Assembly (NCBI GenBank): GCA_017435255.1 | Contig: JAFSFI010000008.1 | Span: 1,765-65,764 of the forward strand | Length of the DNA: 64,000 nt | Origin: Bacilli bacterium | GTDB taxonomy: Bacteria; Bacillota_I; Bacilli_A; RF39; UBA660 | Reading direction: 5' to 3' | Shown: positions 1 to 62,847 of the stretch, piece after piece | Numbering within the stretch: position 1 is the stretch's first letter | Layout of the letters: each line of letters starts with the position of its first letter | Position numbers and translations under genes: made by a program | Notes under the pieces: model-generated | The model's input: only the letters and a program-made list of their open reading frames with translations | What the model was told of the DNA's origin: nothing | The model's database searches: none

Positions 1-2
1 AT

Positions 3-1445
3 CAAAATGAATCAATAGAACATTTAGCAGAGTGTAATCAGTTAATAAGTTCTTTATCAACAATGATAATGGAAGATAAAACAGCAAAAGAGGCATTTTG
101 GAATAATAGTGCTAGTGATTTATTATATGGTATTATTTCATTATTTTTAGAAGATTATGCTGATGGAAAAATTGAAAGAGAACAAATAACATTATCATCA
201 ATAAAGAAATTTCAAAATAGTTCAATGGCTGGTAAAAATTTAAAGACATTAATTAAATATGTTGAAGGTAAATCTTATGGATTAAAAAGTAAAGATAAAT
301 TAATACCAATAATAACTACATCAGAAAATACCTATAAGAGTATTACAAGTATATTTAATGAACGAATGACTTTATTTGATGATATTAATGTTGAAAATAT
401 AACATCTGATTCAGATTTTGAATTTGATATTTTAGGAAAGCAACCAACAGTCTTATATTGTTGTATTCCCGATGAATCAAAAATATATTATGCTTTGGTA
501 TCAATAGTTGTTTCTTTAATATATAAGACATTAGTATTATTATGTAATTCACAACCAAACAAGAGATTACCATATGATCTTGTTTTTTTATTAGATGAAT
601 TTGCTAATACACCACCATTATCTGATATTGAAACAATAGTATCAGTAGCAAGAAGTAGAGGAATGTATTTTCAATTCTTCTTACAAAGTTTCGCACAATT
701 AGATAATTTGTATGGAAAAGAAGTAAGTCAAATTATCCAAGATAACTGTGGACTTGCTTATCTTAAAACTAATACACAAGAAACAGCAGAAGCAATATCA
801 AAAAGATTAGGTAATAAAACTATTGAAACTACATCATTAAATTATTCATTAAGTTTTATGAATAATAATGGTAGTAAAGGAACAAGTTTAATTGCTAGAA
901 ATCTTATGACAGCTGATGAAATAAAACAATTACATTTTAAAACAATAATATTCCCAACGATTGGATACCCAATTTTTAGGGACACAGTTGTATATCAAAA
1001 GTTTAGTTGTTATAAAAAAGGAATGATTGATAGAAAGGTAAGACCACTTGAAAGGTTAGTTAATACTTATCACACAGTAGAAAAATTAAAGTTTGATGAA
1101 GAAGAACAACCTAAACAAGAACAACCAAAAGTAAATGATGAAACTCAAAAACAAAGAACTGAACTTTATAACTTAATAAATAAAGTTGTTGAGATATTTG
1201 GAAAAGTTGATAAAGAAGTTGAATATGTAGTTGATAATGGAAAGGTAACTGCTGAACTTTATATAGCACCACCATTATCATTGAGCGACATCACAAGTTT
1301 AGAAGAAAATAGTGAAAAATATAATTTTAAATATGAAGCAATAACTGAAAAACAAAAAATAAAAAAGAATGGACGAAATTCTTTAATATTAATATCTTTG
1401 TTAGATGAAGGAGAGAAAATAGATGAACATAGGAGAAATAATTAA
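3..1445 (+). CDS. Type IV secretion coupling protein (VirD4/TraG family), C-terminal part; 5' end beyond the window
   Basis: The frame is open from the window edge, upstream of the ORF-track ATG at 63. Walker-B region VFLLDEFANTPP, then ARSRGMYFQFFLQSFAQLDNLYG and DNCGLAYLKTN..TAEAISKRLG, as in VirD4/TraG coupling ATPases. Confidence 0.75.
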   Translation, partial: QNESIEHLAECNQLISSLSTMIMEDKTAKEAFWNNSASDLLYGIISLFLEDYADGKIEREQITLSSIKKFQNSSMAGKNLKTLIKYVEGKSYGLKSKDKLIPIITTSENTYKSITSIFNERMTLFDDINVENITSDSDFEFDILGKQPTVLYCCIPDESKIYYALVSIVVSLIYKTLVLLCNSQPNKRLPYDLVFLLDEFANTPPLSDIETIVSVARSRGMYFQFFLQSFAQLDNLYGKEVSQIIQDNCGLAYLKTNTQETAEAISKRLGNKTIETTSLNYSLSFMNNNGSKGTSLIARNLMTADEIKQLHFKTIIFPTIGYPIFRDTVVYQKFSCYKKGMIDRKVRPLERLVNTYHTVEKLKFDEEEQPKQEQPKVNDETQKQRTELYNLINKVVEIFGKVDKEVEYVVDNGKVTAELYIAPPLSLSDITSLEENSEKYNFKYEAITEKQKIKKNGRNSLILISLLDEGEKIDEHRRNN

Positions 1446-1899
1446 AAGTTCAAGAGAACGAGCAGGAATATCAATGAGAGAATTAGGAAGATTATCAGGA
1501 GTTAATAGTTCTGAAATATCTAAAATAGAAAGTGGGTTAAGACCTAGTCCTAATCTTAAAACATTAAAAAAATTATGTAGATATTTAGATATAAGATTAA
1601 ATGATTTAATCTTTGAAATGGGATTAGGTGCAACTTATAATCCTAAAAATAAAATCTTAATTGATTATTATAAGAATTTAGATATTAAGAATGTAAAATT
1701 ACCATATAAAGCACTTAAATATAAATATAATGATACATTAAAACAAATAAAAAAATTTAATGAAATGAAAGAAGATAAAAGGTATCATGATGAGTTAATA
1801 GATTTAATCAAAATACTAGAATACGAAAATGATACTACTAAATTTATTTTGAATATTTTAGAAGAAAAAATATTAAGCAATTTTTTAAACGAAAGTTAG
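1423..1899 (+). CDS. XRE-family helix-turn-helix transcriptional regulator
   Basis: N-terminal HTH_3 pattern IIKSSRERAGISMRELGRLSGVNSSEISKIESGLRPSPNLKTLKKL. Overlaps the end of the upstream gene by 23 nt. Confidence 0.7.
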   Translation: MNIGEIIKSSRERAGISMRELGRLSGVNSSEISKIESGLRPSPNLKTLKKLCRYLDIRLNDLIFEMGLGATYNPKNKILIDYYKNLDIKNVKLPYKALKYKYNDTLKQIKKFNEMKEDKRYHDELIDLIKILEYENDTTKFILNILEEKILSNFLNES

Positions 1900-1911
1900 G
1901 AGGTTGAAAAA

Positions 1912-4900
1912 ATGAAAGAAGAGTTTAAGAAAGATTTTATAAATAATAGAGATAATACTTTAACTGAAATAAAAGAAAATAATAACAACTGGAATAAGTT
2001 TATAGTTTATTGGTCAAACATTTTAGATAAATATAGTATTGATAATGTTTTGAATCTTTATTCTTATAATCCTTATGGAAGATTATTCATGACATTTGAT
2101 GAATGGAATAGTAATGAAATTGATAGAAGAATTAAACCAAAGAGTAAAGGGATACCTATACTTGAAGATAATAATAAAATATATGTTTTTGACGTAAGAC
2201 AAACATATGGAAAAGATTATAGAATATGGAAATATAATCACATGGCAGATATTGAAATATTAAGTTATTTCCAAGATAAGTATAAAGTATTACATGATAG
2301 TGATTTATCTTTGGATAATAATTTTTATAAAACATTTAAAGAAATAACAAAAGATAAAATAGAAGATAATTATATAGGATTATCTGATAAAGAAGTGGAG
2401 TTTGTATCTAATACAATAACTTCACTTTTTTTATCTAAATCTAATTTTAATATTTATAACTTACCTAGTAGTTATGAAAGTGTAAATAAGTTAGATGATG
2501 AAGATATTTTAAAATGTATGCAAATTGCTAATAAAGAAACAGCAATTATGTTTAATGAATTTCAAAAAAATGCGAAAAATATATCTAATCTTCATGCAAT
2601 TATTAGAGAAGATATTTTAAATCAATATAATGAAAATGTTTTTAAAAATGAAAATGAAATAAATGGGACTTTAAATGACTTATCTAATGCAAGTGGGTAT
2701 AATCATGAGTTATTAGAAGGTATTTATAATAATTTATTAAGTAAATATTCTTATATTAATAAGGATAAAAGAGAACAACCAAAAGAAGAAATCATTGAAG
2801 AAATAAGAGTTGAAGATGAGAAGAAAGCAGATGTATATGAAAATATACAAATGTCTTTATTTGCAACAAGAGAAGAAGAACTAGCAAATAAAATATGTGA
2901 TATATTTAATTCATTTGATACTAAATATCAAAATACTTTTGAAGTTAGAAATGTAGAATTACAAGTATGGGAACATATTGCTAGTAATAAAAGAAACCTA
3001 TCAATAATGTTAAAAAGTCCACTAGCAGATTATAATGAAAATGCTTTTACATATTTTAATGCTGATAAAACTGATGAAATAAAAATAAATGATAGTATAA
3101 AGAAAAATTATTTCTTACAACAATTATATAAAGATAAAGATTTCTCAATAACATTATCACCAGATATAGTTCATATATTTTGGAATAATTTTGATGATAA
3201 AAAATTTGATATGAATATCCCTAGCACAAAGGTAATAGATCAAGAAGAAATTGAACAAGAGGAATTAGAAAAAATAGATGAAGAAGTAGATTATATAGTA
3301 AGAACATCAGAACTAATACCTACTCAAAATGGAATTGAAACTAATGTTATTGAATCAAAATATTATAATAAAGATGGTATAGAATTAGAACAACCAAAAG
3401 AAGAACAATATCCTAAAATTAATTATCATATTAGTGATGATAAAGTTGATAATAATTTTGGTGCAAAAAGTAGATTTGATGATAATGTAAATGCAATTAA
3501 ATTATTAAAGAAATTAGAATTAGAAGATCGTAATGCAACAAGTGATGAGCAAGAGATACTTACTAAATATGTTGGTTGGGGAGGATTATCTGATGCTTTT
3601 GATGAAAGAAAAGATAATTGGAATAGAGAATATAATGAACTTAAAAATCTTTTAAGTGAGGAAGAATATAATCAAGCAAGACAATCAACATTAACATCTT
3701 TTTATACACCTAATGTTGCAATAGATGGTATTTATGATGCTATTAAAAAATTTGGATTTAATAAAGGAAATATATTAGAGCCATCTTGTGGTATTGGAAA
3801 TTTTTTTGGAAGAATACCAGAAGAACTAAATAACAATAGATTATATGGAGTAGAGTTAGATAGTATAAGTGGAAGAATTGCAAAGAAACTATATCCAACA
3901 GCTAAAATAGAAATAAAAGGATATGAAGAATCTAGTGTTCAAGATAATTTCTTTGATGTAGCAATAGGTAATGTTCCTTTTGGTAATTATAAAGTTTTAG
4001 ATAAGAGATATAAAGAAAACTTTATGATACATGATTATTTCTTTCAAAAGACATTAGATAAAGTTAGATCTGGTGGAATTATTGCTTTTATTACTACTGA
4101 TGGAACACTTGATAAGAAAGATACAAAGGTAAGAGAATATATTGCTAAACGAGCAGAATTAGTTGGAGCAATAAGACTACCAAACAATACATTTACAGGG
4201 AATGCAAATACAAAGGTAACATCTGATATTATTTTCTTAAAGAAAAGGGACGAATTAAAACATGATATAAGTGATGAAGATTGGATTTATACTAGTGAAT
4301 ATGATGATGGTATAACAATTAATAATTATTATATAAATCATCCAGAGATGATGCTTGGAAAAATGGAATTACATTCAACTGCTTATGGAATGGATAATAC
4401 TTTAAGTCCAATAGAAACACCATTAAAAGAATTAATGATTGATGCAATAAACAATTTACCACCTAACATATTTGAAAATATTGAGTTTGAATTAAATGAA
4501 CAAAATAATAAATATGAAATATTAGAAGTAGAAGATGGAATAAAGAATAATGCTTTTGTAATAAAGAATATAAATGATAAAGATATTATATATCAAAGAC
4601 AAGATTCTAATTTAGTTCCATATTCAATTCAAGATGGAATGACTGCAAAAAGAATTATTGGTTTATGTAAAGTAAAAAATGATTTAAGAAAAGTATTTGA
4701 TATACAACTTAAAGATGGTAGTGATGAAGAATTAGAACTTGCACAAAGTAAATTAAATAATTCTTATGATGAGTTTGTTAAAAAGCATGGATATATAAAT
4801 GATAATGTTAATCAAAGAGCATTTGACGAAGATCCAGATTATTACTTACTAACTTCTATTGAAAATAAAATTAGTAAAGATGAAGAAGATGATAAACCTG

Positions 4901-7900
4901 TATATGTTAAGGGAGATGTTTTTACTAAAAGAACAATAAGAAAAAGTAAAGAAGCAAAGAGTGTTGAAACAGCAGAAGATGCTTTGAGATATTCACTTAA
5001 TAATCGTGGATGTGTAGATTTAGATTATATGAAAACATTATATCCAAAAGATGAAGAAGAAATTATTGATGAACTTGGTAATTTAATTTATCAAGATCCA
5101 TCTAAATTAAATGATTTTAATAAAGGATATGTAATAGCAAGTGAGTATTTAAGTGGAAATGTAAAACAAAAACTTAATTATGTTAAATCAGTAAATATTG
5201 ATAATAAGTATGATAGAAATATTGAGGCACTAGAACAAGTGCAACCTATACCACTTGAATATGATGAGATAAGTGTTAAGTTAGGATCTACTTGGATACC
5301 AGAAGATGTATATCATCAATTTTGTTGTGAACTATTAGATATAAGTAGATGGAATGCAACAAGATTAAAAATTAAATATGCAAAAGAAATTAATTCGTGG
5401 TTATTTCAAGCAAGTGGTTTATATGGATATGGAGTAAAAAATACTAATGTATGGGGAACTGATAGAGCAGATGCTTTATCAATAATTAAGAATACTCTTA
5501 ATCTTCAAAGTATAACTGTCTATGACAAATTAGAAGATGAAAGACGAGTAGTAAATCCAGTAGAAACTGCTAATGCAAGAGAAAAACAAGAATTAATAAA
5601 ACAAGAGTTTAAAGAATGGATTTGGAAAGATGAAGAACGAAGAAATAGATTAGTTAAAATCTATAATGAAAACTTTAATTGTATGAGAGAAAGAGAATAT
5701 GATGGTAGTCATTTAACATTTGATGGAATGAATCCAACAATAGATTTAAGAGAACATCAAAAGAATGCTGTTGCAAGAGTTTTATATGGTGGTAATACTT
5801 TACTTGCTCATGCAGTAGGTGCTGGTAAAACTTACGAATGTATCGCAAGTGCAATGGAATTAAAAAGATTAGGTATAGTTAGTAAACCAATGTTTGTTGT
5901 TCCTAATCATTTATTAGGACAATGGGCTAATGAGGTTTTAAAACTATATCCAACAGCAAACATATTAGTTGCTACTCAAAAAGATTTTGAAAAAACAAGA
6001 AGAAAAAAACTAATGGCAAAAATAGCAACAGGAGAATGGGATGCAGTTTTAATTGCACATTCTAGTTTTGGATTAATCCCTATGAGTAAAGAATACGAAA
6101 AGAAACATATTGAAAAAGAAATACAAGAAGTAACAGAAGCAATAGATAGAATAAAAATGGAAGAAGGAGGAGGATTAAGTGTAAAGAAATTAGAGCAAAT
6201 TAAAATGAGTATGAATACAAAGCTAAAAAACTTATTAGATGATACTAAAAAAGATGATGTAGTAACATTTGAAGAATTAGGTGTAGATCAACTTATTGTA
6301 GATGAAGCACATATGTTTAAAAACTTACCAATGTTTTCTAAAATAAGAAATGTTGCTGGAATTAATAATAGTGAAAGTAAAAAAGCAACTGACCTTTATA
6401 TGAAGATAAGTTATATTTTAGAAAATAATGATGGTAAAGGAGCAGTATTTGCAACAGGAACTCCTATTAGCAATTCAATGGGAGAATTATTTGCAATGCA
6501 AAAATATCTTCAAATGGATAGATTAAGAGAAATGGGATTAGAACATTTTGATGAATGGGCATCAACTTTTGGAGAAATAGTTAATAGTTTTGAAATTGCA
6601 CCAGATGGTAGTGGTTTTAGAACAAAAGCACGATTTGCTCAATTCTTTAATATTCCTGAACTTATGACTTTATTTAAAGAAGTTGCTGATATTAAAACAT
6701 CAAAAATGTTAGACTTACCAGTTCCTAAATTAAAAGGTGGAGAATATAAAACAATAGTAGCACCCAAAACTGATGAATTAGGAGATTATGTTGAGAAATT
6801 AGCAGAACGAAGTGAAATAATAAGAAATGGATGTGATCCAAGAATTGATAATATGTTGCTTGTTACCAATGATGGAAGAAAAGCAGCACTTGATTTAAGA
6901 ATGATAGATCCAAATATGCCAGACTTACCTAATTCAAAAGTTAATATGGCTATTGAGAACATTTATAGAATATGGTTAGAAAATAAAGAAGACAAGCTTA
7001 CACAACTTGTCTTTTGTGATTTATCAACACCTAAAAATGATGGAACATTTAATGTTTATGATGATATTAAAAATAAATTAATTGAAAGAGGAATACCAGA
7101 AGATGAAATTGAATTTATTCATAATGCTAAAACAAATCCTCAAAAGTTAAAACTATTTGAAGATATGAGAACAGGTAATAAAAGAATACTTATAGGATCT
7201 ACTTCTAAAATGGGAGCAGGTATGAATGTTCAAGATAAATTAATTGCTTTACATCATTTAGATTGTCCATGGCGACCAAGTGATATAGAACAAAGAGAAG
7301 GTAGAATATTAAGACAAGGAAATCAAAATGAAGAGGTAGAAATATATAGATATGTAACTGAAGGCAGTTTTGATGCTTACTCTTATCAATTAATTCAAAC
7401 AAAATCTACATTTATAAATCAAATAATGGCTAATTCAAATGGTGGTGGAAGAACAGCAGAAGATTTAGATAGAGATACACTTACTTATGCAGAAGTAAAA
7501 GCATTAGCAAGTGGTAATCCTTTAATAATTGATAAATTCAAAATTGAAAATGAATTGAAACAATTATATTTATCTAAATCAAGATATGATAAATCACGAA
7601 TTGAATTAGAATCTAAATGTAATAGAGAATTACCTCAACAATTAAAATTTCAAGAAAGATATTTAAACGGATTGGAACAAGATATAAATAAAGTAGAAGA
7701 TTTGTCTGCTGATAATTTCAAAATAACAATAAGAGATCAATTCTTTGATTCAAGAAAAGATGCGAGTACAAAATTTTATCAAACTTTATCGTTGTTAAAG
7801 ACAGGAGAGGAAATCAAGATAGGAGAAATAAGTGGCTTTGATATTGTGGGAACACGAGAAGAATTGAGATTTACCCCTGTCGTATATATAAAAGGTATTG

Positions 7901-8196
7901 GTAAATATAAAGTAGAAATAAATAATATTGATGAAATAGGTAATATTCTTAAATTAGAGAATATGCTTAAAAGTTTTGAAACTAAAATTGAAACAGTTAA
8001 AGAGCAAATAGAATATACAAAGAAACAATTAAATGATGCAAAAGAAGAACTTGATAAACCATTTGCTTTTACTGAAAGAATAAGAGAATTACAAAAAGAA
8101 AAAGCAAGAATTGATAGTGAACTTGATTTAGATAAACAAGAAACGACTCAAGAATTATCTGACGAAAATAGTAATGATGATGAATTAGAAAGATAA
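1912..8196 (+). CDS. Giant fusion protein: N6-adenine DNA methyltransferase domain plus SNF2/DEAH helicase domain, typical of conjugative elements
   Basis: SAM motif [13 protein letters not shown] and catalytic motif IV GNVPFG around aa 630-690. Helicase Walker [15 protein letters not shown] box [11 protein letters not shown], and helicase-C motifs [13 protein letters not shown] and [19 protein letters not shown] upstream. Confidence 0.85.
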
Positions 8197-8401
8197 TTAA
8201 AAAAATGTAAAAAAAGTCTTGCAAAATTTCTTTTTTTAAGTGATTAATTATACGAAGAAAAAAGTCGTTTTAAAGTAGTTAATACAAGAATATCAAATTG
8301 TAAGACGCTCGGTTATATAACTATAAGTCATAAAAATTAAAACCTCTTAAAACGGCTTAAATTCGTTATATATAGTGATGTAATAAAAGGAGGAAGATAT
8401 T

Positions 8402-8908
8402 ATGTATATTACAGAAACTACAATTAATGTAAAAAATGTATTTGAAAAGGTAGAAGAATTGAATGATATAGGAAAAGTTAAATTTATTCTATATACATTC
8501 GGTTTGTTAAATAATAATCAAATAAATAATAAAAATGAAATTAATCCTACATTAAATAAAGATGAAGAAGAAATGACAATATTTAAAATGGATTTGTTAG
8601 GTTTATCTGAAAGTGCTTGTAATGTGTTTTTAGAATATAATGCAATGTTATATAATGGATTAACTGAAACAAAAGATATAATTATAGATAATGGAAATGT
8701 ATTAGGATTAGAATTTGATGATAATGAAATTAATATAGTAAAAGATTTTGAAAAATTAACTTATAATGAAAAGTTAGATTTATTTAAAGAATTGTTTATA
8801 AGATATGATAATAATACTTATTTTAAAAATAATATAAACATTATGACTTTTGACTCAAATAAAAATGGTTTTGATATAGCAAGAGAAATTGAACAATTTA
8901 AAATATAA
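8402..8908 (+). CDS. Hypothetical acidic, Asn-rich ICE protein
   Basis: 168-aa ORF with strong RBS AAAGGAGGAAG 6 nt upstream. No recognisable motif. Confidence 0.4.
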   Translation: MYITETTINVKNVFEKVEELNDIGKVKFILYTFGLLNNNQINNKNEINPTLNKDEEEMTIFKMDLLGLSESACNVFLEYNAMLYNGLTETKDIIIDNGNVLGLEFDDNEINIVKDFEKLTYNEKLDLFKELFIRYDNNTYFKNNINIMTFDSNKNGFDIAREIEQFKI

Positions 8909-9003
8909 AAATATATATAAGGACTAGTGATAGTCCTTTTTTTATGTAAAAAAATAATTATTTCAATTTACTAAACATATATTTAGAAAGGAAAGGTGAT
9001 TTT

Positions 9004-9129
9004 ATGTATAGAAAAGAAAAAATAAAAATAAATTTATTTTATGATGATTCTGGTGTAAATATATTAGATGTTTTAAAATTAGACTTCAAGGAATTTTTTG
9101 AACAATATTTAAAAGAAAAAGTTTTATAA
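9004..9129 (+). CDS. Possible small ORF (41 aa) upstream of the recombinase
   Basis: Not in the ORF track. ATG preceded by GAAAGGTGA. Peptide MYRKEKIKINLFYDDSGVNILDVLKLDFKEFFEQYLKEKVL. No homology recognised. Confidence 0.25.
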   Translation: MYRKEKIKINLFYDDSGVNILDVLKLDFKEFFEQYLKEKVL

Positions 9130-9242
9130 ATTTATCCAAAATAACTGAAAATATAATGTTTCTATGATATAATAACCATGTACCGTACTCGGTTGGTTAT
9201 ATTAGAAATGTTTGTATTGAATTCTAGAAATAGGAGGAAAAT

Positions 9243-10898
9243 ATGAATTATGATTGTGGAGTAGTTAAAGCATTACTAAACATATATAAACCAGAAGAAA
9301 TAGCTAAATATATAAGGTTATCTCTTGCTGATGAAGAAAGTGAAAAACAAAAACCAACTGATGAGAGTGAAAGTGTTACTAATCAAAGAAGATTAATAAA
9401 TAGTTTTATTGATCGCAATGGTAATATAGGTGCAAATTGTAAAGAGTTTATTGATGACGGATGTTCTGGAACAAATTTTGATAGACCTGGATGGAATAAA
9501 TTACAAGAACAAATGGAAGCAGGTAAAATCAAAGTTGTTATAACAAAAAGTTTATCAAGACTAGGTAGAAGTAATTTTGAGTGTAGTTATTTTCTTGATT
9601 ACTATTTTCCTGAAAACAATATTAGATATATTGCAATACAAGAACAAATAGATACAGGAAATGGAGAAAATACTAACAACGAATATGCGGCTTTAAACAA
9701 TTTTATAAATGAAAAATATTCTAGAGATTTATCAAAGAATATTAAAAGGGTTTATAGAATGAAACAACAATCAGGAGAATATATGGGAGGTATTCCTGTA
9801 TATGGATATAAGAAAGATCCTAATGATAAACATAAACTGATTATTGATGAAGAAGCTGCAGATGTTGTTAGAGAAATATTTGACAAGTATTTAGAACTAC
9901 AATCACAAAGTGCTGTTATGAAATATTTAACTGATAAGAAAGTCCCTATACCAGAGGTATATAAAGGAACTAGAAGAGGAATTAAAGCAAAACACCCATA
10001 CGAATGGAATTATCATACAATTAGAAGCATTCTTCGTAATCAAATGTATATTGGAGATATGGTACAAAATGTTCATGTCAAAAAAAGTTTTAGAGAAAAG
10101 AAGATTATTAAAAATGATAAGGAAAATTGGGTTATAGTTGAAGGCACACATGAACCTATTATTGATAAAGAAACATTTGATAGAGTTCAAAATCTATTAG
10201 ATGCTAATTTTAGACAACCAACACCAGAATATCAAAGAACATTTAAAGGATTAATGTTTTGTCATGAATGTGGACATTTAATAGGCGTAGGTAATCCTAA
10301 AAGAGATAATAGACCTATTGAAAAACAATATGTATATACTTATTGTAATTATTATAGAAAGAATAGTGCGTATAATAAGTGTACTCCACATACAATGAAC
10401 TACAATAATCTTGAAGATCAACTTTTATCTATTATTACAAATGTATGTAATAAATATATTAATTTAGTTGGATATGATGATTTGGTTGAAAATAGAAAAA
10501 AGACATTAACAACATATACAACTGATTTAGAGAAAAAAGTTGGTAGATTAGAGATAGACCTAAAAACCATTGATTTAAAAATTGAAAAGTTATACATGGA
10601 TAGATTAGATGACATTATAACACCAGATACATATAAGAAACTTACGGATAAATTTGAAGAACAAAAACATGAAATGCAAAAACAAATTGATGAGTTAAAT
10701 CAAAGTATAAATGAATATAAAGAAAATAATAAAGTAGAAGATTTACTTGAAACTCAAACCATAGTAAAAGAATATTTAAAAGCAAGAAAAAATCCACCAA
10801 GAGAATTAATTTTAAAAATAATTGATAAAATAGAAATACATCAAGATAAGACAGTGGATTTACATTTTAAACTAAAACAACTTGAAGAAGTTGTATAA
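9243..10898 (+). CDS. Large serine recombinase (resolvase/invertase N-domain, recombinase domain, zinc ribbon, coiled coil); the ICE integrase
   Basis: Catalytic serine context AKYIRLSLADEES. ITKSLSRLGRS, YGYKKD, Cys cluster CHECGH...CNYYRK...C and a C-terminal coiled coil. Sits at the extreme end of the element, as in Tn5397/Tn4451/skin-type elements. Confidence 0.9.
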   Translation: MNYDCGVVKALLNIYKPEEIAKYIRLSLADEESEKQKPTDESESVTNQRRLINSFIDRNGNIGANCKEFIDDGCSGTNFDRPGWNKLQEQMEAGKIKVVITKSLSRLGRSNFECSYFLDYYFPENNIRYIAIQEQIDTGNGENTNNEYAALNNFINEKYSRDLSKNIKRVYRMKQQSGEYMGGIPVYGYKKDPNDKHKLIIDEEAADVVREIFDKYLELQSQSAVMKYLTDKKVPIPEVYKGTRRGIKAKHPYEWNYHTIRSILRNQMYIGDMVQNVHVKKSFREKKIIKNDKENWVIVEGTHEPIIDKETFDRVQNLLDANFRQPTPEYQRTFKGLMFCHECGHLIGVGNPKRDNRPIEKQYVYTYCNYYRKNSAYNKCTPHTMNYNNLEDQLLSIITNVCNKYINLVGYDDLVENRKKTLTTYTTDLEKKVGRLEIDLKTIDLKIEKLYMDRLDDIITPDTYKKLTDKFEEQKHEMQKQIDELNQSINEYKENNKVEDLLETQTIVKEYLKARKNPPRELILKIIDKIEIHQDKTVDLHFKLKQLEEVV

Positions 10899-10927
10899 TT
10901 TTTACAAAAAAGTTATCACTGAAAACC

Positions 10928-11344
10928 ATGAGCCATAATTTTAAAGGATATAAAGCAGGAGATACAATTACTGTAGAAGGAAGCTATGATATTAATATTT
11001 GGTATTCATGCCAAGACGATACTAAAACTGAAGTTGTAAGACAAACTGATACATATAAAGAAACTGTGGTAGTCCCAAGAAAAAACAATTCTAATATATC
11101 TGGAGATGAAGAGATTATTGTTAGAAGTTTAAGACAACCAAGTTGCGTAAAAGCGGAAATTCAAAACGGAATGATAGTATATACTATTGAAAAAGAATTA
11201 GGAATTGAGATTGTAGGGGATACTAAAGTAAAAATTGCAATAGATGAAGACGAGGATGAATGGGATATTATAGATGATGATGTAATTGATAATGAAATAG
11301 ATAAAAAGATAGATGAAGAAGTTAATGAAGAGTTCTTAGATTAA
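10928..11344 (+). pseudogene. cotE: 3' portion of cotE (outer spore coat morphogenetic protein E), split by the ICE insertion
   Basis: [49 protein letters not shown] and an acidic tail ending EEFLD match B. subtilis CotE from about residue 55 to the C-terminus (from memory). About 45-50 N-terminal residues are missing. No SD precedes the ATG. The frame is open back to 10886. Confidence 0.7.
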
Positions 11345-11459: not shown

Positions 11460-11641
11460 ATGGAAAAGAAAAGTAATAAAGGAGTAGTTATTTCATTATT
11501 AGTAGTAATAGCAGTATTAATAGGTTCTATTACATACATGTTTGTAAGTGGAACAGTAATATTTAATACAAAGAAAAATAATGATAACAAAACAGAAGAA
11601 AAAGAAAATAATAAAAATGAAAATGACAAAGAAAATGAAAA
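11460..11641 (+). repeat. 182-nt near-identical copy 1 of a duplicated 5' gene module
   Basis: Near-identical to 12203..12384, with only a few substitutions on visual alignment. Covers the start codon, TM anchor and the start of the NKNENDKENE linker. Confidence 0.85.
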
Positions 11642-12065
11642 TGACAAAGAAAATGAAAATGATGATGAAATTGATATAAATATATCGATGGATACTGTTA
11701 GTGTTTCAAAAGATGCACCGAATACAAAAATTTTAATTACTGGTATGATAGATTTATCTTATGATAATAATAAATATGAAGGAGTAACACTTTCTGGATA
11801 TTGTCTTGGAGCAGATAACGAAAAATATCTTATTAATGGTCCTAACGATGGTAGAGTATTTTTCCATAATGATGGCAATAAAGACCTTACTCTTGCAGAA
11901 AATTCAGGTGCAGAGTATCCAGATGGAACAACTAAAGCTGGGTCAGAAGTCGATTGGGAAAACGTTGAAATTAAATATTGTAAAATTGATAAAATGACTA
12001 CAATATTAAGTGACGGAACAATCGGCCGTGAAATCACATTAAATGTCGAAAAAAATTTCAATTAA
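11460..12065 (+). CDS. Membrane-anchored hypothetical protein (paralog A)
   Basis: RBS AAGGAGG. N-terminal signal-anchor MEKKSNKGVVISLLVVIAVLIGSITYMFV, then an N/E/K/D low-complexity linker and a unique C-terminal domain. Confidence 0.6.
   Translation: MEKKSNKGVVISLLVVIAVLIGSITYMFVSGTVIFNTKKNNDNKTEEKENNKNENDKENENDKENENDDEIDINISMDTVSVSKDAPNTKILITGMIDLSYDNNKYEGVTLSGYCLGADNEKYLINGPNDGRVFFHNDGNKDLTLAENSGAEYPDGTTKAGSEVDWENVEIKYCKIDKMTTILSDGTIGREITLNVEKNFN
11616..11669 (+). repeat. In-frame 18-nt tandem repeat, 3 units, encoding NENDKE/NENDKE/NENDDE
   Basis: AATGAAAATGACAAAGAA occurs twice, followed by the degenerate AATGAAAATGATGATGAA. Paralog B carries fewer units. Confidence 0.8.
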
Positions 12066-12202: not shown

Positions 12203-12384
12203 ATGGAAAAGAAAAGTAATAAAGGGGTAGTAATTTCGTTATTAGTAGTAATAGCAGTATTAATAGGTTCTATTACATATATGTTTGTAAGTGGAACAGT
12301 AATATTTAATACAAAGAAAAATAATGATAACAAGACAGAAGAAAAAGAAAATAATAAAAATGAAAATGACAAAGAAAATGAAAA
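12203..12384 (+). repeat. 182-nt near-identical copy 2 of the duplicated 5' gene module
   Basis: See 11460..11641. Confidence 0.85.
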
Positions 12385-13072
12385 ACAAGAGGAGGAACAA
12401 GGAGAAGCTGAGCCATTAGATTTAAATAGTGTTTTAGTACAAGATTTATATAATTATGTTAACTTAGATCCGGGATATGGAGATGTAAAAGATTTTTTTG
12501 GTTCATATGGTAATATAACTAACAAAGAAGTGTCTGATGAAATTAAGTTGTTGACTACTTTGGTTGTTAATAAATTAGGAGATTCTGCTGTCTTTTTGGA
12601 AAATAGACAAGAATATTGGGGAACAGCAAAAGTATATTCTTTAAGCGGTAGTCTTGTACTAAATGAACTTAATAAAATTTATGGTAAGGATAATGGTTAT
12701 ACTCATTTGAGTGAAGGAGTATATTTCCCTATGTCTGGTATGTCTAAAAATATATGTGCGACAATAAAATATAATGCAACATCCGAAAATTATGAAATAA
12801 TAGAACAAGGCGGATGTGGTGGAGCTGTGGCTCACTCTATGCATGGTAAATTAATTGGTGCTGAAAAGGTAAACGATAAAATCGTATTAACAGAAAAAAT
12901 ATATATGTCTACTGCAGAAAATATATATAAAACAATAGATGCCACTGAAATTATTGGTTCTGGAAACAATGCAAATAGCCAAGAATATTTTGATAAAGGA
13001 GCAACTACTGAATATACATTCAAATTAGCAGAGGATGGAAGTTATTACTTTGATAGTAAAACAACTTATTAA
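12203..13072 (+). CDS. Membrane-anchored hypothetical protein (paralog B)
   Basis: RBS AAGGAG. The first ~60 aa are the same as paralog A, followed by an unrelated ~225-aa C-terminal domain. Confidence 0.6.
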   Translation: MEKKSNKGVVISLLVVIAVLIGSITYMFVSGTVIFNTKKNNDNKTEEKENNKNENDKENEKQEEEQGEAEPLDLNSVLVQDLYNYVNLDPGYGDVKDFFGSYGNITNKEVSDEIKLLTTLVVNKLGDSAVFLENRQEYWGTAKVYSLSGSLVLNELNKIYGKDNGYTHLSEGVYFPMSGMSKNICATIKYNATSENYEIIEQGGCGGAVAHSMHGKLIGAEKVNDKIVLTEKIYMSTAENIYKTIDATEIIGSGNNANSQEYFDKGATTEYTFKLAEDGSYYFDSKTTY

Positions 13073-45189: not shown

Positions 45190-47124
45190 ATGAAAAAATT
45201 AAAATTTGATGAACAAAATATTGGAAGACTTGATGGTCAAGTTAGGGTAAAAAGACATGGAAAGAAAGAATTAACTGGGTATGCGACAATTGATAAGCCA
45301 TGGATGAAGTGGTATGAATATGAAGAAATGCCTATTACAACAGGAGTTAATGCGTATGATAATTTTCTTCATGAGACTAGGAATTTCGATTTTCCATTAT
45401 TAGAATATTATGGAAAGAAGTATACTCGTAAAGATATTGAAAGAGAAGTAGAAGATAAGATTAAGAAGCTAACTACTATGGGAGTAAAACAAGGAGATAT
45501 GGTTTCATTTGTATTTTTAAATGTTCCTGAAGCTATATTCTTTTGGTTTGCATTATCCAAAATGGGAGCAACAGCGAATTTAATTAAGTTTGATGAAAGT
45601 CCAGAGCGAATTAAAACAATGTGTGAATTAGCTAATTCTAAATATTTGTTTGTTTCAGAAGTGCCATTTATTGTTGATAATGTTATTAAAAGTTGTGAAT
45701 TAGGCCTTTGGGATACAGTAGATCAGATTATTACTGTTCCAGTAACAGAATCTATGCCTAAAGTAGCAGTTTTAAATATGCTTTATGAGGATAGCAAAAA
45801 AGTAGAATTTAAAGAAAAATCACCGTTCGCTACATTAAAAGCAATGAAGAAAGTATATAGTGATACCATGCGAGCTCAACAAGAGTTAAAAGCAAAATTA
45901 GAAACATATGATATGTTTATGACTTATGAGGATTGGAAAGATATATATAATGGTAAAAGTATGAATACTATTATTGGGGGAGGACAAAATCCTAGTGTTA
46001 TCATGTATACAGGTGGTACTACGGGAGGTGCTAAAGGTGTAGTAACAACTAATGATGCATTTAGTGCTAGTGCCCATATTTTTAAAACTAGTGAAATGGA
46101 GTTTTATCCAGGTAAAACATCTATGAGCATATTACCACCAGCAGTATCTTACTATTTTAATGCAACATATTGTTTAATGTGTTGTGGAGTATCAGTTAAT
46201 TTAATATCTAAGTTTGATATTAACGAATATCCAGAATTAATTAAGAAAACGAGACCTAATGTTTATATGGCTGGTCCAATATTATTTAAAGCTATTAGAG
46301 AATCTGACATCGAAGATTTATCTTTTGCAACAGATCCTATTTCAGGTGGTGATAAACTTCACACTGAAGAGGAATATTTATATCATGATTTCTGTAATGA
46401 AAAAGGCTGTGATACATGGATTAAACAAGGTTATGGTATGACTGAGACCATGGCAGGTGTTGTGTATTCAATCAAGCCAGCATTAAAGGTTGGAAGTATT
46501 GGTATACCTTTAAAACATTGTGATGTAGCAATATTCGAATATGGTACAGATGAAGAGAAGAAGTATGGAGAAATAGGTGAAATTTGTGTTTCTGGACCTA
46601 CTATTATGAAAGAATATTTAAATAATCCTGAAGCTACTGCAGATATGCTTAGAGTTCATTCTGATGGTAAAGTTTGGTGCCACACAGATGACTTGGGTTA
46701 TATGGATGAAGAAGGAAGAATTTATCACCAGGGAAGAGCTAAGAGAATGATTACTAGAAACGGTGGTAAGATTTGGCTTGGAACATTGGAAGATGCAATT
46801 AAATCTCATCCATTAATTGATAATTGTTGTTGTGTTAAACTAAATGATGAAGAAGAGCGTGAAGTTCCTGTGGCACATGTAGTATTTAAAAATGATGATG
46901 TAGATAGTAGTGTTTATGATGAAATCGATGCTATTGTTAGACAAAATTGCCCAGAAATTTATGTACCTAAATACTATGTAAAACGTGATGAAATACCGGT
47001 TACTCAAGTTAACAAAAAGATAGATTTTAAAACTTTGGAAAATGAGAATATAATGGATCCTAACAACTATAGTATAAATGGTAGGGTAATTACTAAGAAA
47101 AATAAAGTAAAGAAATTAAGTTAA
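45190..47124 (+). CDS. AMP-dependent synthetase/ligase (acyl-CoA synthetase family)
   Basis: AMP-binding motif YTGGTTGGAKGV, then GYGMTE, and HTDDLGYMDEEGRIYHQGR. The substrate cannot be inferred. Confidence 0.8.
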   Translation: MKKLKFDEQNIGRLDGQVRVKRHGKKELTGYATIDKPWMKWYEYEEMPITTGVNAYDNFLHETRNFDFPLLEYYGKKYTRKDIEREVEDKIKKLTTMGVKQGDMVSFVFLNVPEAIFFWFALSKMGATANLIKFDESPERIKTMCELANSKYLFVSEVPFIVDNVIKSCELGLWDTVDQIITVPVTESMPKVAVLNMLYEDSKKVEFKEKSPFATLKAMKKVYSDTMRAQQELKAKLETYDMFMTYEDWKDIYNGKSMNTIIGGGQNPSVIMYTGGTTGGAKGVVTTNDAFSASAHIFKTSEMEFYPGKTSMSILPPAVSYYFNATYCLMCCGVSVNLISKFDINEYPELIKKTRPNVYMAGPILFKAIRESDIEDLSFATDPISGGDKLHTEEEYLYHDFCNEKGCDTWIKQGYGMTETMAGVVYSIKPALKVGSIGIPLKHCDVAIFEYGTDEEKKYGEIGEICVSGPTIMKEYLNNPEATADMLRVHSDGKVWCHTDDLGYMDEEGRIYHQGRAKRMITRNGGKIWLGTLEDAIKSHPLIDNCCCVKLNDEEEREVPVAHVVFKNDDVDSSVYDEIDAIVRQNCPEIYVPKYYVKRDEIPVTQVNKKIDFKTLENENIMDPNNYSINGRVITKKNKVKKLS

Positions 47125-47128
47125 TGTT

Positions 47129-47157
47129 AAAGATGATTTAAAATCATCTTTTTTTTA
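47129..47157 (+). terminator. Rho-independent terminator
   Basis: AAAGATGATT-TAAA-ATCATCTTT hairpin followed by T8. Confidence 0.8.
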
Positions 47158-47195
47158 GTGATATATGTGTTATAATTAATAATAGAGGTGAGGCT

Positions 47196-48995
47196 ATGCT
47201 AAGTATATCTTATACAATTATGTCTTTTATAGTTTGTTTAATATTAATGTTTGTATATTTTACAAAAGAAAGAATAAATTATGTAGAGAACAAAATTTAT
47301 TCATTTATTGTAATATCATCATTTTTAAGCTGTTTGTTAGAAATTATTAATTTCGGTTTAGTACAAAATGGTATTAAAGCAACCGACCCGTTGTATTCGT
47401 TTACATTAAAAATGCTTTTTACTGGTTTCTTATCTTGGATATATTCGTTTACTATGTATACAATTATTACCGGTAGAAAACAAAGAGGGGTATTCAACGA
47501 ACAAGGTTTATCAATAAAAAGAATGAGTCTTATATTTGCTTTAGTTGTTGCAATAATTTTATTTTTACCGATAGAAATCTTGGAAACTAATGGATTATTA
47601 TTGCCGGTAGGATTAAGTGTAAATTTGATTTATATTTTAGCTGGAGCTTGTATAGTTGCCATGGTTATTTCTATTATTTTAAATAGGAAGAACCTAAAAA
47701 GTAAAAAGTATATTCCGTTGTATTTAGTCATTGTATTTTTTACGATAATCGTAATTGCGCAAAAGATATTTCCAGAGTTGTTTTTAGTAAATAGTGGTTT
47801 TGCAATAGTAGCGTTCTGTATGTATTTTACTATTGAAAATCCTGATATAAAGATGGTAGAAGAATTAATTGAAAATAGAAAAATTATCGAGCGAGCAGGA
47901 GAAGAAAAATCAGTGTTTTTATTTAAAATATCTCAAGGGTTAAGAGAGCCTGTTCAAAATATTAATAAACAAATTGGTATGTATAAATCTAGTAAGATGA
48001 CTAAACAGGATATAGATTTTGTGGTCGAATCAATTGATAAAAATAATCAAAAAATTAATTATTTAATAAATGAAGTTCTTGGAATATCTTCTTTTGATAA
48101 TATTAATCTTAAAAAAGTAGAAAACACATACAATATCTATTCTCTTTTAGAAGATGTTAAAAAACGTGGTAAATCGTATATAAAAAATGATGTTGGATAT
48201 AATTTTTCGGTAGCCAAAAGCATGCCAAAAGAACTATACGGGGATTCTATTAAATTAAAGCAAGTAATAATGTCTGTTTTAGTTAACGCAATTAAAAATA
48301 CTACTGAAGGATTTGTAGAAGTTGAAGTTAATTCTTTTACCAAGTATGATGTTTGCAGAATAATGTTAACTATAGAGGACTCAGGTTGTGGGACAGATAT
48401 AAAGGTAATTAATAATATTATGGACCAAGATTTAGAATTAACTGAAAAAGATTACCTAAAGACGGAAAAACTGGATGTTGATTTACCTTTAGCATATAAA
48501 ATAATTAAGTCTTTAGGTGGAACCATGTATATTAAAGCAGGAGATATTAAAGGGACTGAGGTTACTATTACTTTAGACCAACATATTGTTAAAAATGAAG
48601 AAATGAGTTTAACTGAAAAAGTTGATTCATATATTAAAACAAGAAGAAACACTAAAAAAGTATTAATTGTTGATGATGATGAAGAAGAAATAAGAAAAAT
48701 TAAACATGCATTAGAAAGAAAAAATTATGATGTAGTTATATCTATGTTTGGTGCTGATGCGATTGATAGGGTCAAAAATAAAGAGAAGTACGATATTATT
48801 CTTATTGATGATGAAATGCCTTTAATGAATGGAATAAATGTTGTACAAGAAATTAATAAATTAAAAAACAAAAGTAAAGAAATTGTTTTGTTAAATAAAG
48901 ATAAATTATTTATAGCTAAACATTACTTAAAAGACGGATTTGATGATTATATTGATAAAACTAATTTGATAGAAGAAATCAATAAAAAATTCTAG
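47196..48995 (+). CDS. Membrane hybrid sensor kinase/receiver protein with a degenerate H-box (His replaced by Gln)
   Basis: About seven TM segments. The H-box position reads FLFKISQGLREPV, against the consensus SHELRTP. N-box VLVNAIKNT, G1 IEDSGCG, and a C-terminal receiver (VLIVDDDEEE...IILIDDEMPLMNG). Confidence 0.7.
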   Translation: MLSISYTIMSFIVCLILMFVYFTKERINYVENKIYSFIVISSFLSCLLEIINFGLVQNGIKATDPLYSFTLKMLFTGFLSWIYSFTMYTIITGRKQRGVFNEQGLSIKRMSLIFALVVAIILFLPIEILETNGLLLPVGLSVNLIYILAGACIVAMVISIILNRKNLKSKKYIPLYLVIVFFTIIVIAQKIFPELFLVNSGFAIVAFCMYFTIENPDIKMVEELIENRKIIERAGEEKSVFLFKISQGLREPVQNINKQIGMYKSSKMTKQDIDFVVESIDKNNQKINYLINEVLGISSFDNINLKKVENTYNIYSLLEDVKKRGKSYIKNDVGYNFSVAKSMPKELYGDSIKLKQVIMSVLVNAIKNTTEGFVEVEVNSFTKYDVCRIMLTIEDSGCGTDIKVINNIMDQDLELTEKDYLKTEKLDVDLPLAYKIIKSLGGTMYIKAGDIKGTEVTITLDQHIVKNEEMSLTEKVDSYIKTRRNTKKVLIVDDDEEEIRKIKHALERKNYDVVISMFGADAIDRVKNKEKYDIILIDDEMPLMNGINVVQEINKLKNKSKEIVLLNKDKLFIAKHYLKDGFDDYIDKTNLIEEINKKF

Positions 48996-61046: not shown

Positions 61047-61106
61047 GTTCTACTTTTTATTTTGGGTTTTTTGTTATATAATATTTTAGGAAATGAGGGG
61101 AAGTAT

Positions 61107-62519
61107 ATGAATTTACCAGATTATGTTGAAGCTAGACGTAGAACAAAGAGTAAAGTAGATATAGAGATGTATAGTAATGATATAAAGGGAATAGGAATAG
61201 GTAAAACATATCATATCAAAACATATGGATGTCAGATGAATGAACATGATAGTGAGAATATTAAAGCTATTTTAGAAGAATTAGGTTTTACTTATTGTGA
61301 AGATTACGAGTCTAGTGATTTAGTTCTTTTAAATACTTGTTCTATTAGGGAAAATGCACATAATAAAGCTTTTGGTATGTTAGGAAGACTTAAGCATTTA
61401 AAAGAGTCTTCTAACCCTAACTTAATAGTAGGTCTTTGTGGTTGTATGGCCCAAGAAGAAGGTGTTGTAAAAGAAATAATCTCCAAATATAAATGGGTTA
61501 ATTTTGTATTTGGAACTCATAATTTACATAGGCTTCCATATTTGCTAAACGAGAATTTTAAGAGCAATAAATCTGAGATAGAAGTATTTAGTTATGAGGG
61601 AAATATAATTGAAGGAATGCCTGTTAAAAGAGATAGTAAGTATAAAGCGTTTGTAAATATTATTTATGGTTGCGATAAGTTTTGTACTTATTGTATAGTT
61701 CCTTTTACTAGAGGAAAACAAAGAAGTAGATTAAAAGAAGATATTATTTCAGAAGTGGAACAATTAGTTCGTGATGGTTACCAAGAAGTAACTCTTTTGG
61801 GGCAAAATGTTAATGCTTATGGTAAGGATTTAGAACTTGGTTATGGAATGGAAGAACTACTTGAAGAAGTAAGTAAGACTAATATTCCTAGAATACGTTT
61901 TGTAACTAGTCATCCATGGGATTTTACTGATGGAATGATTGATGTTATAGCTAAACACAAAAATATTATGCCGGCAATTCATTTACCAGTTCAATCAGGT
62001 TCATCTAGTGTATTAAAATTAATGGGAAGACGATATAGTAAAGAAGATTATTTAACTTTATTTAGTAAAATAAAAGAAAAAATTCCTAATGTTAGTATTT
62101 CTACAGATATAATTGTAGGTTTCCCAAGCGAGACGGAAGAAGACTTTAAAGAGACAGTTGAACTTTGTCATTTCTGTAAATTTGATAATGCGTTTACATT
62201 TATATATTCTCCAAGAGAAAATACAGCTGCGGCCAAGTTAAAAGATGATACCCCATTACGTGTAAAAGAGCAGAGATTAAATCAACTTAACGATGTTGTT
62301 AATAAATACTTTTTGGAGAATAATAAAAAGTTAATTGGTGAATATGTTCCCGTATTAGTTGAAGGAATAAGTGATAAGAAAAATGAATTATATGGATATA
62401 CTGACACTAATAAGTTAATTAATTTTAAAGGTGATGAATCACTAATTGGTAAAATTGTTCGTGTAAAAGTTACTGATGCTAAAACATGGAGTTTAGATGG
62501 AGAACTAGATGAGAGATAA
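61107..62519 (+). CDS. miaB: tRNA-2-methylthio-N6-dimethylallyladenosine synthase MiaB
   Basis: UPF0004 domain (IKTYGCQMNEHDSE, LNTCSIRENA). Radical-SAM CxxxCxxC (GCDKFCTYCIVP). C-terminal TRAM domain. ATG at 61107 follows GAGGGG. Confidence 0.93.
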   Translation: MNLPDYVEARRRTKSKVDIEMYSNDIKGIGIGKTYHIKTYGCQMNEHDSENIKAILEELGFTYCEDYESSDLVLLNTCSIRENAHNKAFGMLGRLKHLKESSNPNLIVGLCGCMAQEEGVVKEIISKYKWVNFVFGTHNLHRLPYLLNENFKSNKSEIEVFSYEGNIIEGMPVKRDSKYKAFVNIIYGCDKFCTYCIVPFTRGKQRSRLKEDIISEVEQLVRDGYQEVTLLGQNVNAYGKDLELGYGMEELLEEVSKTNIPRIRFVTSHPWDFTDGMIDVIAKHKNIMPAIHLPVQSGSSSVLKLMGRRYSKEDYLTLFSKIKEKIPNVSISTDIIVGFPSETEEDFKETVELCHFCKFDNAFTFIYSPRENTAAAKLKDDTPLRVKEQRLNQLNDVVNKYFLENNKKLIGEYVPVLVEGISDKKNELYGYTDTNKLINFKGDESLIGKIVRVKVTDAKTWSLDGELDER

Positions 62520-62847
62520 AATTCTAAATAAAGTTGATGAAATCATAGATATTATAAGAAATAGTGAAGAGTATTATAAATATATAGAAATATCTAATAA
62601 ATTAAAAGAACACGAAGAAATTATGGGTTTAATAGATGATGTTAAATCTTTACAAAAGAGATTGGTAAAAGAAGAATCATTAAATCTGGATATTAGTTAT
62701 ATAGATAAAGAAATAAATCAAAAACTAGCACTATTAGAAGCATATCCAATCTATTTAGAGTATATTGAGTTGCAAGAAAGCCTAGATCATAGTATAGGAA
62801 TAGTAAAAGATGGAATAGAAAAATATATAAATAATATTACTAATTAA
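62509..62847 (+). CDS. YlbF/YmcA (RicA/RicF)-family protein
   Basis: 112-aa helical protein overlapping the miaB stop. Same position as B. subtilis ymcA downstream of ymcB/miaB. The pattern is consistent with the family. Confidence 0.55.
   Translation: MRDKILNKVDEIIDIIRNSEEYYKYIEISNKLKEHEEIMGLIDDVKSLQKRLVKEESLNLDISYIDKEINQKLALLEAYPIYLEYIELQESLDHSIGIVKDGIEKYINNITN

Follow-up and report, generated by a model that had tools for sequence, protein, structure and literature searches.

The Right End of a Conjugative-type Element Lies within cotE

The DNA analyzed here, called the window, is a 64,000-nucleotide stretch of contig JAFSFI010000008.1 from a Bacilli bacterium, and coordinates given without a contig number refer to it. 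In its left part the last gene of an element of conjugative type, which encodes a large serine recombinase (LSR), is followed by a fragment of the spore-coat gene cotE. The features at this junction are as follows.

9004–9129, plus strand: open reading frame (ORF) of 41 amino acids, proposed recombination directionality factor, with homologues in L074, L078, L080, L084, L044, and L085
9165–9203, plus strand: extended −10 sequence (TGATATAAT) with a palindromic ACCATGTACCGTAC...GGT element behind it, read from the sequence 5′ of the recombinase gene
9243–10898, plus strand: LSR of 551 amino acids (three Pfam domains, conserved motif, TnpX structure match, PHROG 95)
10905–10965, no strand: attR, comprising an element arm with GTTATCAC (10912–10919), the crossover at 10934–10936, and a cotE arm from 10937
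10937–11344, plus strand: cotE codons 44–178 plus the stop codon, a 3′ fragment of 135 codons (Pfam CotE, alignment, in-silico join)

The ORF at 10928–11344 (138 amino acids) starts 30 bases past the LSR stop codon and matches profile positions 39–174 of the 177 in Pfam CotE with an E value of 4.5e-30. Full-length CotE homologues have 177–179 amino acids, and the window ORF aligns with them from column 41 on. A previous reading made from the sequence alone had recognized this ORF as the C-terminal part of CotE, with a frame open back to 10886 and no Shine-Dalgarno sequence before ATG 10928, next to a recombinase of the large serine type; the profile matches, including Resolvase, Recombinase, and Zn_ribbon_recom domains within the 551 residues of the recombinase, bear this out. 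The same reading had put attR at about 10899–10925 and the missing part of the gene at 45–50 codons, and these two estimates are revised by the comparison below to a crossover at 10934–10936, where contigs diverge, and a loss of 43 codons.

This exact LSR is present on 14 contigs from ENA, Logan, and NCBI, and the same junction recurs in independent assemblies. They are identical past the stop codon through ...GAAAACCATGAGCCAT / ...ATGAGCCAT / ...AAGTTATCACTGAAAACCATGAGCCAT (end 10936) and then diverge: beyond 10936, three groups of contigs run into three different cotE alleles, and contig L004 runs beyond the CAT into GTGTTGGTCAGTGGTGATAACC..., in which the TTATCAC arm is repeated in inverted form. 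The attB site (L027) reads TGGGTTATTAAT-CAT-AATTTTAAAGG, attL (L010) ...AAT-CAT-CTCTTGGTCATTGGTGATAACCAC, and attR (window) ...ATGAGC-CAT-AATTTTAAAGG; only CAT is common to these three and the attP-like junction in L004. The junction sequences taken for the set of four sites are TGGGTTATTAATCATAATTTTAAAGGATATAAAGC for attB and GAAAACCATGAGCCATCTCTTGGTCATTGGTGATAACC for the predicted attP. Because the contigs diverge at this point and the att sites share nothing but CAT, we place the crossover within CAT 10934–10936, which is codon 43 (His) of cotE. The arms of attP are imperfectly inverted (TTATCAC ... GTGATAA), and those of the L004 junction are 19-nt inverted arms centered on CA. An LSR is expected to act on short sites whose imperfectly inverted arms flank a central crossover dinucleotide, as seen here.

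With the crossover at 10934–10936, the called ORF includes 9 element-derived bases, and ATG 10928 is assigned to the element. The ORF starts MSH where intact proteins read INH. The ATG is not conserved in related elements, being ATC in L080, absent in L084, and ATG in L078. Base composition does not mark the junction, since this AT-rich window (23–30% GC) has 23–28% GC on both sides of it and AT skew alone drifts.

The Empty Site and the Rejoined Gene

An intact counterpart of the split gene is found on JGI contig L027, which lacks the element and encodes a 178-amino-acid CotE (P0241) that is at least 90% identical. The gene order there is rbfA, nrdD, nrdG, nrdD-like, trxB-like, cotE, a gene for a 294-amino-acid protein, fmt, peptidase C1, SNase, and C39 ABC transporter, and cotE has the same genes on its right as the cotE fragment has in the window. 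With the predicted N-terminal fragment as query, we retrieved a 55-amino-acid protein, P0121 (NCBI MBQ7140887.1, "MAG: Bacilli bacterium"), whose gene lies in the same orientation directly behind nrdD and trxB-like genes, as in L027, and is followed by element DNA. The attL site is present in L010–L016, attR in the window, and the empty site in L027, with the two element ends on different contigs.

Joining the two halves in silico at CAT yields an ORF of 537 nt and 178 amino acids, the length found in L027, with 94.4% nucleotide identity and 172 of 178 residues identical. The 30 nucleotide changes that separate the 3′ fragment from the intact relative are mostly synonymous and alter 6 amino acids. 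Joins in other hosts are likewise in frame, giving 176 amino acids for L074 and 181 for L080. A CotE 5′ fragment at the other junction, an intact protein upon joining the flanks, and a full-length cotE instead of the short ORF in an element-free relative had all been anticipated by the sequence-only reading, and each is seen here; its expectation that no intact cotE exists elsewhere agrees with the absence of a second cotE from the 64-kb window. The sequences thus indicate that the element has integrated into the cotE coding sequence by attP × attB recombination through its terminal LSR, dividing the gene into a 55-amino-acid 5′ ORF and the 135-codon 3′ fragment, and that precise excision would restore the reading frame. 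The description of the element as a candidate sporulation intervening element still fits.

The surroundings of cotE differ among hosts. Two tandem genes for membrane-anchored proteins whose first 60 residues are identical (11460–12065 and 12203–13072) occupy the place of the single 294-amino-acid gene of L027. In L074, cotE follows miaB and a YlbF/YmcA-family gene, just as miaB and ymcA directly precede cotE in B. subtilis, and this arrangement supports cotE orthology. In the window a miaB-like gene followed by a 112-amino-acid ORF lies at 61062–62847, 50 kb from cotE, unlike in L074 and B. subtilis, so that cotE has moved in the window host.

The Recombinase, Its Small Upstream ORF, and Their Promoters

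The assignment of the recombinase rests on several matches. Pfam recognizes Resolvase (E 9e-15), Recombinase (E 1e-24), and Zn_ribbon_recom (E 9e-8) domains, so that a catalytic serine domain is combined with Recombinase and zinc-ribbon domains and a long C-terminal extension. Residues R25-L26-S27 of the YIRLS motif do not vary among four homologues. Among solved structures the TnpX catalytic domain comes closest (E 5e-23), the C-terminal region matches that of the A118 integrase, and the protein falls in PHROG 95 (integrase) with an E value of 3e-102.

An ORF of 39–44 amino acids lies directly upstream of every recombinase of this subfamily that was examined (48–100% identity), in seven contexts of which two do not target cotE. 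The family has the consensus K-INL-Y--D-G--I-DVL--DF--F---Y, and in the window a CATATATT motif stands ~20 nt 5′ of the start codon of the 41-amino-acid member. No significant Pfam or PHROG match was obtained for this family, for the 168-amino-acid protein encoded upstream, or for the ORFs of the mini-elements described below. By position and co-variation, the small ORF is the best candidate for a directionality factor, in which case the arrangement is attL...rdf-int-attR, as in the study of Suzuki et al. (PMC6957869).

A TATAAT-type −10 sequence, often with an extended TG, is found at the position of the recombinase promoter in all homologous elements, and the sequence at 9165–9203 is likely to be a sigmaA promoter plus operator. 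A palindrome of the ACCATGTAC-N-GTACATGGT type follows the recombinase −10 sequence in the window (9165–9203) and in L080 (~8625–8665), and upstream of the first gene at the element's left end (L010 ~10195–10225) there is a related sequence; the palindrome may be an operator shared by the two ends. The small ORF has its own upstream region, in which a CATA(A/T)(A/G)TT motif, treated here as weak, is present in four of the five cotE-type elements. A scan of 8100–9300 for sigmaE and sigmaK motifs gave one sigmaE-like match, also weak, located 5′ of the 41-amino-acid ORF.

Upstream of cotE itself, five diverged hosts have the sequence AC-N17-GCATAnnnTA at a constant spacing from the ribosome-binding site; the background frequency of this motif is 0.03 per 60 nt. 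The sequence fits the sigmaK consensus of B. subtilis. The gene keeps a sigmaK-like promoter, on split alleles too, and by analogy with B. subtilis we infer its expression in the mother cell.

Gene Content of the Element

The part of the element inside the window and its remaining genes are the following.

1–10936, plus strand: the ~10.9 kb at the right of the integrated conjugative element, inside which the window starts; other contigs with these genes reach farther left, and the right boundary is the point of contig divergence
3–1445, plus strand: 3′ part of a type IV coupling protein gene (666 amino acids in full), with Pfam T4SS-DNA_transf, TrwB_AAD_bind, and TraG-D_C on the full gene (L001 and L019)
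1423–1899, plus strand: helix-turn-helix (HTH) regulator of 158 amino acids (Pfam HTH_3, HTH_19, HTH_31)
1912–8196, plus strand: helicase-domain protein of 2094 amino acids (ResIII, Helicase_C, SNF2-related; domain matches)
8209–8248, plus strand: promoter-like 40-nt sequence (TTGCAA...), with an identical copy in the left half of the element (L010 19624–19663)
8402–8908, plus strand: 168-amino-acid protein without family assignment, a backbone gene kept in relatives whatever their recombinase

The left half, read from L030 over 20.5 kb from attL, has genes for a methyltransferase-like protein, an HTH_36 protein, regulators, and an ABC/FtsX protein and also encodes a 1213-amino-acid adhesin with SpaA domains, a sortase, a single-stranded DNA-binding protein (SSB), and a DUF8208 membrane protein. 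The coupling protein has relatives on 32 loci from species-representative genomes, namely metagenome-assembled genomes (MAGs) from goat, deer, rabbit, chicken, and human gut that are labeled Bacilli bacterium, Ca. Faecimonas, Ca. Onthocola, and Ca. Scybalousia. One gene order recurs in at least 15 of the 32 loci: DUF8208, a 100-amino-acid protein, a VirB4-like ATPase, an M23 peptidase, two small proteins, a relaxase-like protein, cargo, three small proteins, the coupling protein, the 2094-amino-acid protein (66–77% identity over its full length in most relatives), the 168-amino-acid protein, and the recombinase. The relaxase-like protein has a weak match to Pfam Relaxase/MobL in L039 and no Pfam match for its L061 homologue.

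Contigs that carry the exact window proteins end 1.8–4.9 kb to the left of the window start, and the relaxase-like and VirB4 genes, seen at a conserved position in the at least 15 relatives, fall in a stretch that is unassembled for the window's own element. The two halves can be bridged as one element because the gene order of the relatives brings the final genes of L030 and the opening genes of the window together within ~9.5 kb, because both halves occur in the same samples (SRR12529390, L008 and L013; ERZ28654157, scaffold_224 and L036), and because they have the 40-nt sequence in common. We infer a single integrative and conjugative element (ICE) of ~40–45 kb with the recombinase as its last gene, an organization seen directly in relatives. 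The coupling protein in the window, together with VirB4, the relaxase-like protein, M23 hydrolase, SSB, sortase, and adhesin of the left half or of relatives with the same order, agrees with the conjugative character attributed to the element at the outset. Its att boundaries and empty site are those of an ICE, as are the signs of horizontal transfer: the identical LSR and element end adjoin at least three different cotE alleles, and the same left end adjoins at least two.

Distribution of Split cotE and Other Targets

Searching with the N-terminal query returned at least 236 protein clusters that are CotE N-terminal fragments (E of 0.001 or less). The CotE part of about 113 of the best 120 clusters ends ...GCWVIN(H/Q), i.e. 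at the same codon, and continues into related read-through tails (LLVVGDNHCKIY, LLVIGDNHYGSR, LITVGDKHL) that are translations of the conserved GTGATAA arm. One of these fragments, P0183, is indexed in 102 blocks of the protein collection; behind it come homologues (72% and 60% identity) of the two genes with which the left half begins. The nine 3′ cotE fragments that were examined are all open to a CotE-like C terminus.

The recombination unit is not confined to one backbone. A second conjugative backbone, with a sortase and a coupling protein of 761 amino acids that is only 40% identical, carries the small ORF and an LSR of 80% identity next to four further cotE alleles (L078, L081–L083). 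Two mini-elements lie complete on single contigs: one of 3,340 bp in L074 (3047–6917), with an LSR of 67% identity, and one of ~4.1 kb in L080 (6134–10825), with an LSR of 88% identity. Both are without transfer genes and retain both att sites, the small ORF (39 amino acids), the LSR, and both cotE halves, and besides these they contain only a few small ORFs. In one sample's copy of the L074 mini-element, L076 (2596–4220), loss of 1 nt breaks the recombinase into ORFs of 255 and 278 amino acids, and with this copy the complete attL-element-attR units on single contigs are those of L074, L076, and L080. This comparative evidence points to movement of the recombination unit between two conjugative backbones and mini-elements. 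The L080 mini-element also holds an ATP-grasp-like gene and, by eye, an apparent remnant of a group II intron maturase.

The same backbone has, in other species, an unrelated serine recombinase (22–27% identity) at its end, and these recombinases adjoin truncated genes for D-Ala-D-Ala carboxypeptidase (Dac) in L061, L039, L040, L042, L046, and L069. The fragments for which coordinates were recorded are these.

L039 21266–21961, L061 21096–21860, and L069 14215–15033: truncated Dac genes (that of L061 covers Pfam Peptidase_S11 positions 106–235 of 239)
L060 21405–21965: fragment of a spoVD-like penicillin-binding protein gene (TIGR02214 positions 409–597, E 1e-54)

These junctions suggest that the ICE family exchanges recombination units and has at least one second target of sporulation type. 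A different target is seen in L044 (10633–13166), where an LSR of 48% identity with the same small ORF upstream adjoins a valS fragment that begins at profile position 262. An essential gene is a surprising insertion target, and this junction could reflect a second valS copy or a chimera.

Proposed Excision in the Mother Cell and Its Alternatives

The reading that we moderately favor is that an LSR-integrated ICE in cotE is excised in the mother cell with the help of the 41-amino-acid protein and that cotE is thereby rejoined. The small ORF, the recombinase, and the att sites would act like those of skin, SPbeta, and gin. The recombinase would be made from its sigmaA-type promoter, and the 41-amino-acid protein encoded just upstream would serve as directionality factor; once made in the mother cell, it would bring about attL × attR recombination and removal of the element, restoring the 178-amino-acid cotE behind its sigmaK-type promoter for the building of the outer coat. 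The element would stay in the forespore chromosome, and in vegetative cells the same reaction would supply the circular form for conjugation. Given the small ORF/LSR unit and the sigmaK-type cotE promoter, we regard excision in the mother cell, as for skin, SPbeta, and gin (PMC4191935, PMC5025042, PMC5595907), as the likeliest mechanism. The known systems pair a constitutive integrase with a directionality factor under sporulation control (PMC4191935, PMC5025042, PMC6957869).

Several observations weigh against this model. The predicted attP had 0 matches in a scan of JGI metagenome contigs, and an exact look-up of the rejoined CotE of three hosts in a collection of 15 billion proteins found none of them. 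The sole attP-like junction, in L004, connects the end with the recombinase to another element's left end; at 4010–4623 this contig runs ~180 nt beyond the CAT junction to an N gap and then another cotE 3′ allele. We rejected L004 as proof of a circular form, since its right side matches other loci over the 30-nt arm only and it is an N-gap scaffold with another cotE allele; it may represent a hybrid junction, circular or tandem, a very small leftover element, or an error of scaffolding. Near-identical recombinases sit in diverged cotE alleles, so most insertions look recent, and the intact state of the cotE halves is accordingly weak evidence of selection. One LSR of 48% identity with the same small ORF targets valS, which is not a sporulation gene, and the frameshift in the L076 copy is either real decay or an assembly error. 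The role of the 41-amino-acid ORF as directionality factor is drawn from its position and co-occurrence only, and in such AT-rich DNA the sigmaE-like motifs 5′ of the small ORF match only weakly. No single contig holds the whole of the window's own element, and its host is only presumed to be a spore former.

The main alternative, to which we give appreciable but distinctly lower credence, is plain insertional inactivation, with cotE a mere conserved landing site, low-frequency excision for conjugation, spores that are CotE-less or absent, and no developmental rejoining. The missing excision products in the attP scan and the rejoined-CotE look-up speak for it, as do the recent look of insertions with the same recombinase in many cotE alleles, the valS-targeting relative, and the frameshifted recombinase of one mini-element; cotE, moreover, is dispensable for spore formation in B. 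subtilis. What it leaves poorly accounted for is that mini-elements devoid of any transfer gene still hold the LSR, the small ORF, both att sites, and intact cotE halves, that the sigmaK-type promoter is kept on split alleles, and that the split state is very common. Relatives in the family also adjoin a spoVD-like fragment and truncated Dac fragments, the latter possibly from sporulation genes, a pattern like that of the targets of known intervening elements.

That the 138-amino-acid ORF is an old, decayed remnant, with a functional full-length cotE elsewhere in the genome, seems improbable. The join is exact and in frame with mostly synonymous changes, the matching 5′ fragment at the left flank was predicted by the gene order of a relative, and the 64-kb window holds no second cotE, all of which speak against decay; the search covered this window alone, and full-length CotE proteins of 84–87% identity exist in similar samples. 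About as hard to sustain is the idea that the host makes use of the truncated CotE as such, with translation starting at the element-supplied ATG 10928. ATG AGC CAT is indeed in frame with cotE, and L078 has an ATG there too, but no Shine-Dalgarno sequence precedes it, the codon is ATC in L080 and absent in L084, and the cotE promoter stays with the 5′ fragment ~40 kb away. A chimera of assembly or binning is scarcely credible, because, although many contigs break near the junction and L004 is a scaffold containing an N gap, ENA, Logan, and NCBI records from several samples show this junction in independent assemblies and complete units lie on the single contigs L074, L076, and L080.

Relation to Known Intervening Elements

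Intervening elements are known in sigK, spsM, spoVFB, spoVR, gerE, yabG, kamA, and spoVK, and nearly all of them are prophages or their remnants, found in cultured strains of Bacillus or Clostridium. We found no published report of cotE as a target in the literature searched, which excluded subscription journals, in line with the sequence-only reading, which knew of none. Tn5397 (TndX) and Tn4451 (TnpX) of clostridia resemble the cotE element in being conjugative or mobilizable and moved by an LSR, TnpX being the best structural match. Their site specificity is looser, and they are not known to target a sporulation gene or to restore a gene by excision.

The skin element in sigK of B. subtilis and C. 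difficile likewise has a terminal serine recombinase gene, lies in the coding sequence of a mother-cell sporulation gene, has a small directionality factor (Skr, CD1234) near the recombinase, and occurs as reduced non-mobile derivatives (PMC5025042, PMC6957869). It is, however, a defective prophage in a sigma-factor gene, whereas the cotE element is conjugative in type, lies in a coat morphogenetic gene, and is only predicted to excise. SPbeta in spsM (SprA/SprB) is fully mobile and splits a late mother-cell envelope gene, with a constitutive integrase and a small directionality factor under a sigmaE/K-type promoter (PMC4191935, PMC5499854); unlike the cotE element it is a phage, and the recombinases are not closely related, the LSR being nearest to TnpX among solved structures. 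The gin element in gerE of B. cereus is not of phage type either and pairs the serine recombinase GirC with the accessory factor GirX (PMC5595907) but has three recombinases and no conjugation genes, where the cotE element has one recombinase and a full transfer module, as judged from its left half and relatives. The yin element in yabG of C. botulinum also uses a serine recombinase, lies in a sigmaK-controlled coat-related gene, and has circular and integrated forms (PMC10747680); it is a prophage unique to one strain, in contrast to the hundreds of sequence clusters of the cotE system.

The nearest likeness is to an engineered system, ICEBs1 fitted with the SPbeta or skin unit by Suzuki et al. 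in 2019, in which a conjugative element carries an exchangeable attL-rdf-int-attR unit directed to a sporulation gene; a natural conjugative carrier was sought in that work and not found (PMC6957869). The cotE element family looks like a natural counterpart of it. What is new here is the target, cotE as a coat morphogenetic gene, and the natural conjugative carrier. Gut metagenomes from ruminants, rabbits, chickens, and humans commonly contain split cotE, which is probably a widespread case of a gene that needs rejoining during spore formation. If excision is indeed developmental, coat assembly across a lineage of gut bacteria would depend on a mobile element, and the LSR, its short att sites, and the candidate 41-amino-acid factor would form a compact integrase/excision pair. 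More tentatively still, and as a proposal we hold with reserve, a large conjugative family of uncultured, spore-forming gut Bacilli may swap LSR-plus-factor units, target mother-cell sporulation genes (cotE and possibly spoVD-like genes and Dac), and excise in the mother cell, with some members shrunk to domesticated switches of 3–4 kb and the 39–44-amino-acid proteins forming a new family of directionality factors.

Additional Genes near the Element

A 500-amino-acid protein with two ABC_tran domains and no membrane domain is encoded 5′ of the coupling-protein block in L017 (500–2002) and L020 (201–1703); this ABC-F-like protein might be a resistance gene product of the ribosome-protection type. 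Genes for an AMP-binding enzyme and a hybrid histidine kinase form a pair that belongs to the chromosome in the window (45190–48995), stands directly 5′ of cotE in L070 (6097–9859), and is element cargo in L039 (2162–6577), where the kinase is 57% identical. We considered whether this pair travels with the cotE 5′ fragment and discarded the idea, because the genes belong to the host in the window and L070 and are 30–57% identical to the L039 cargo.

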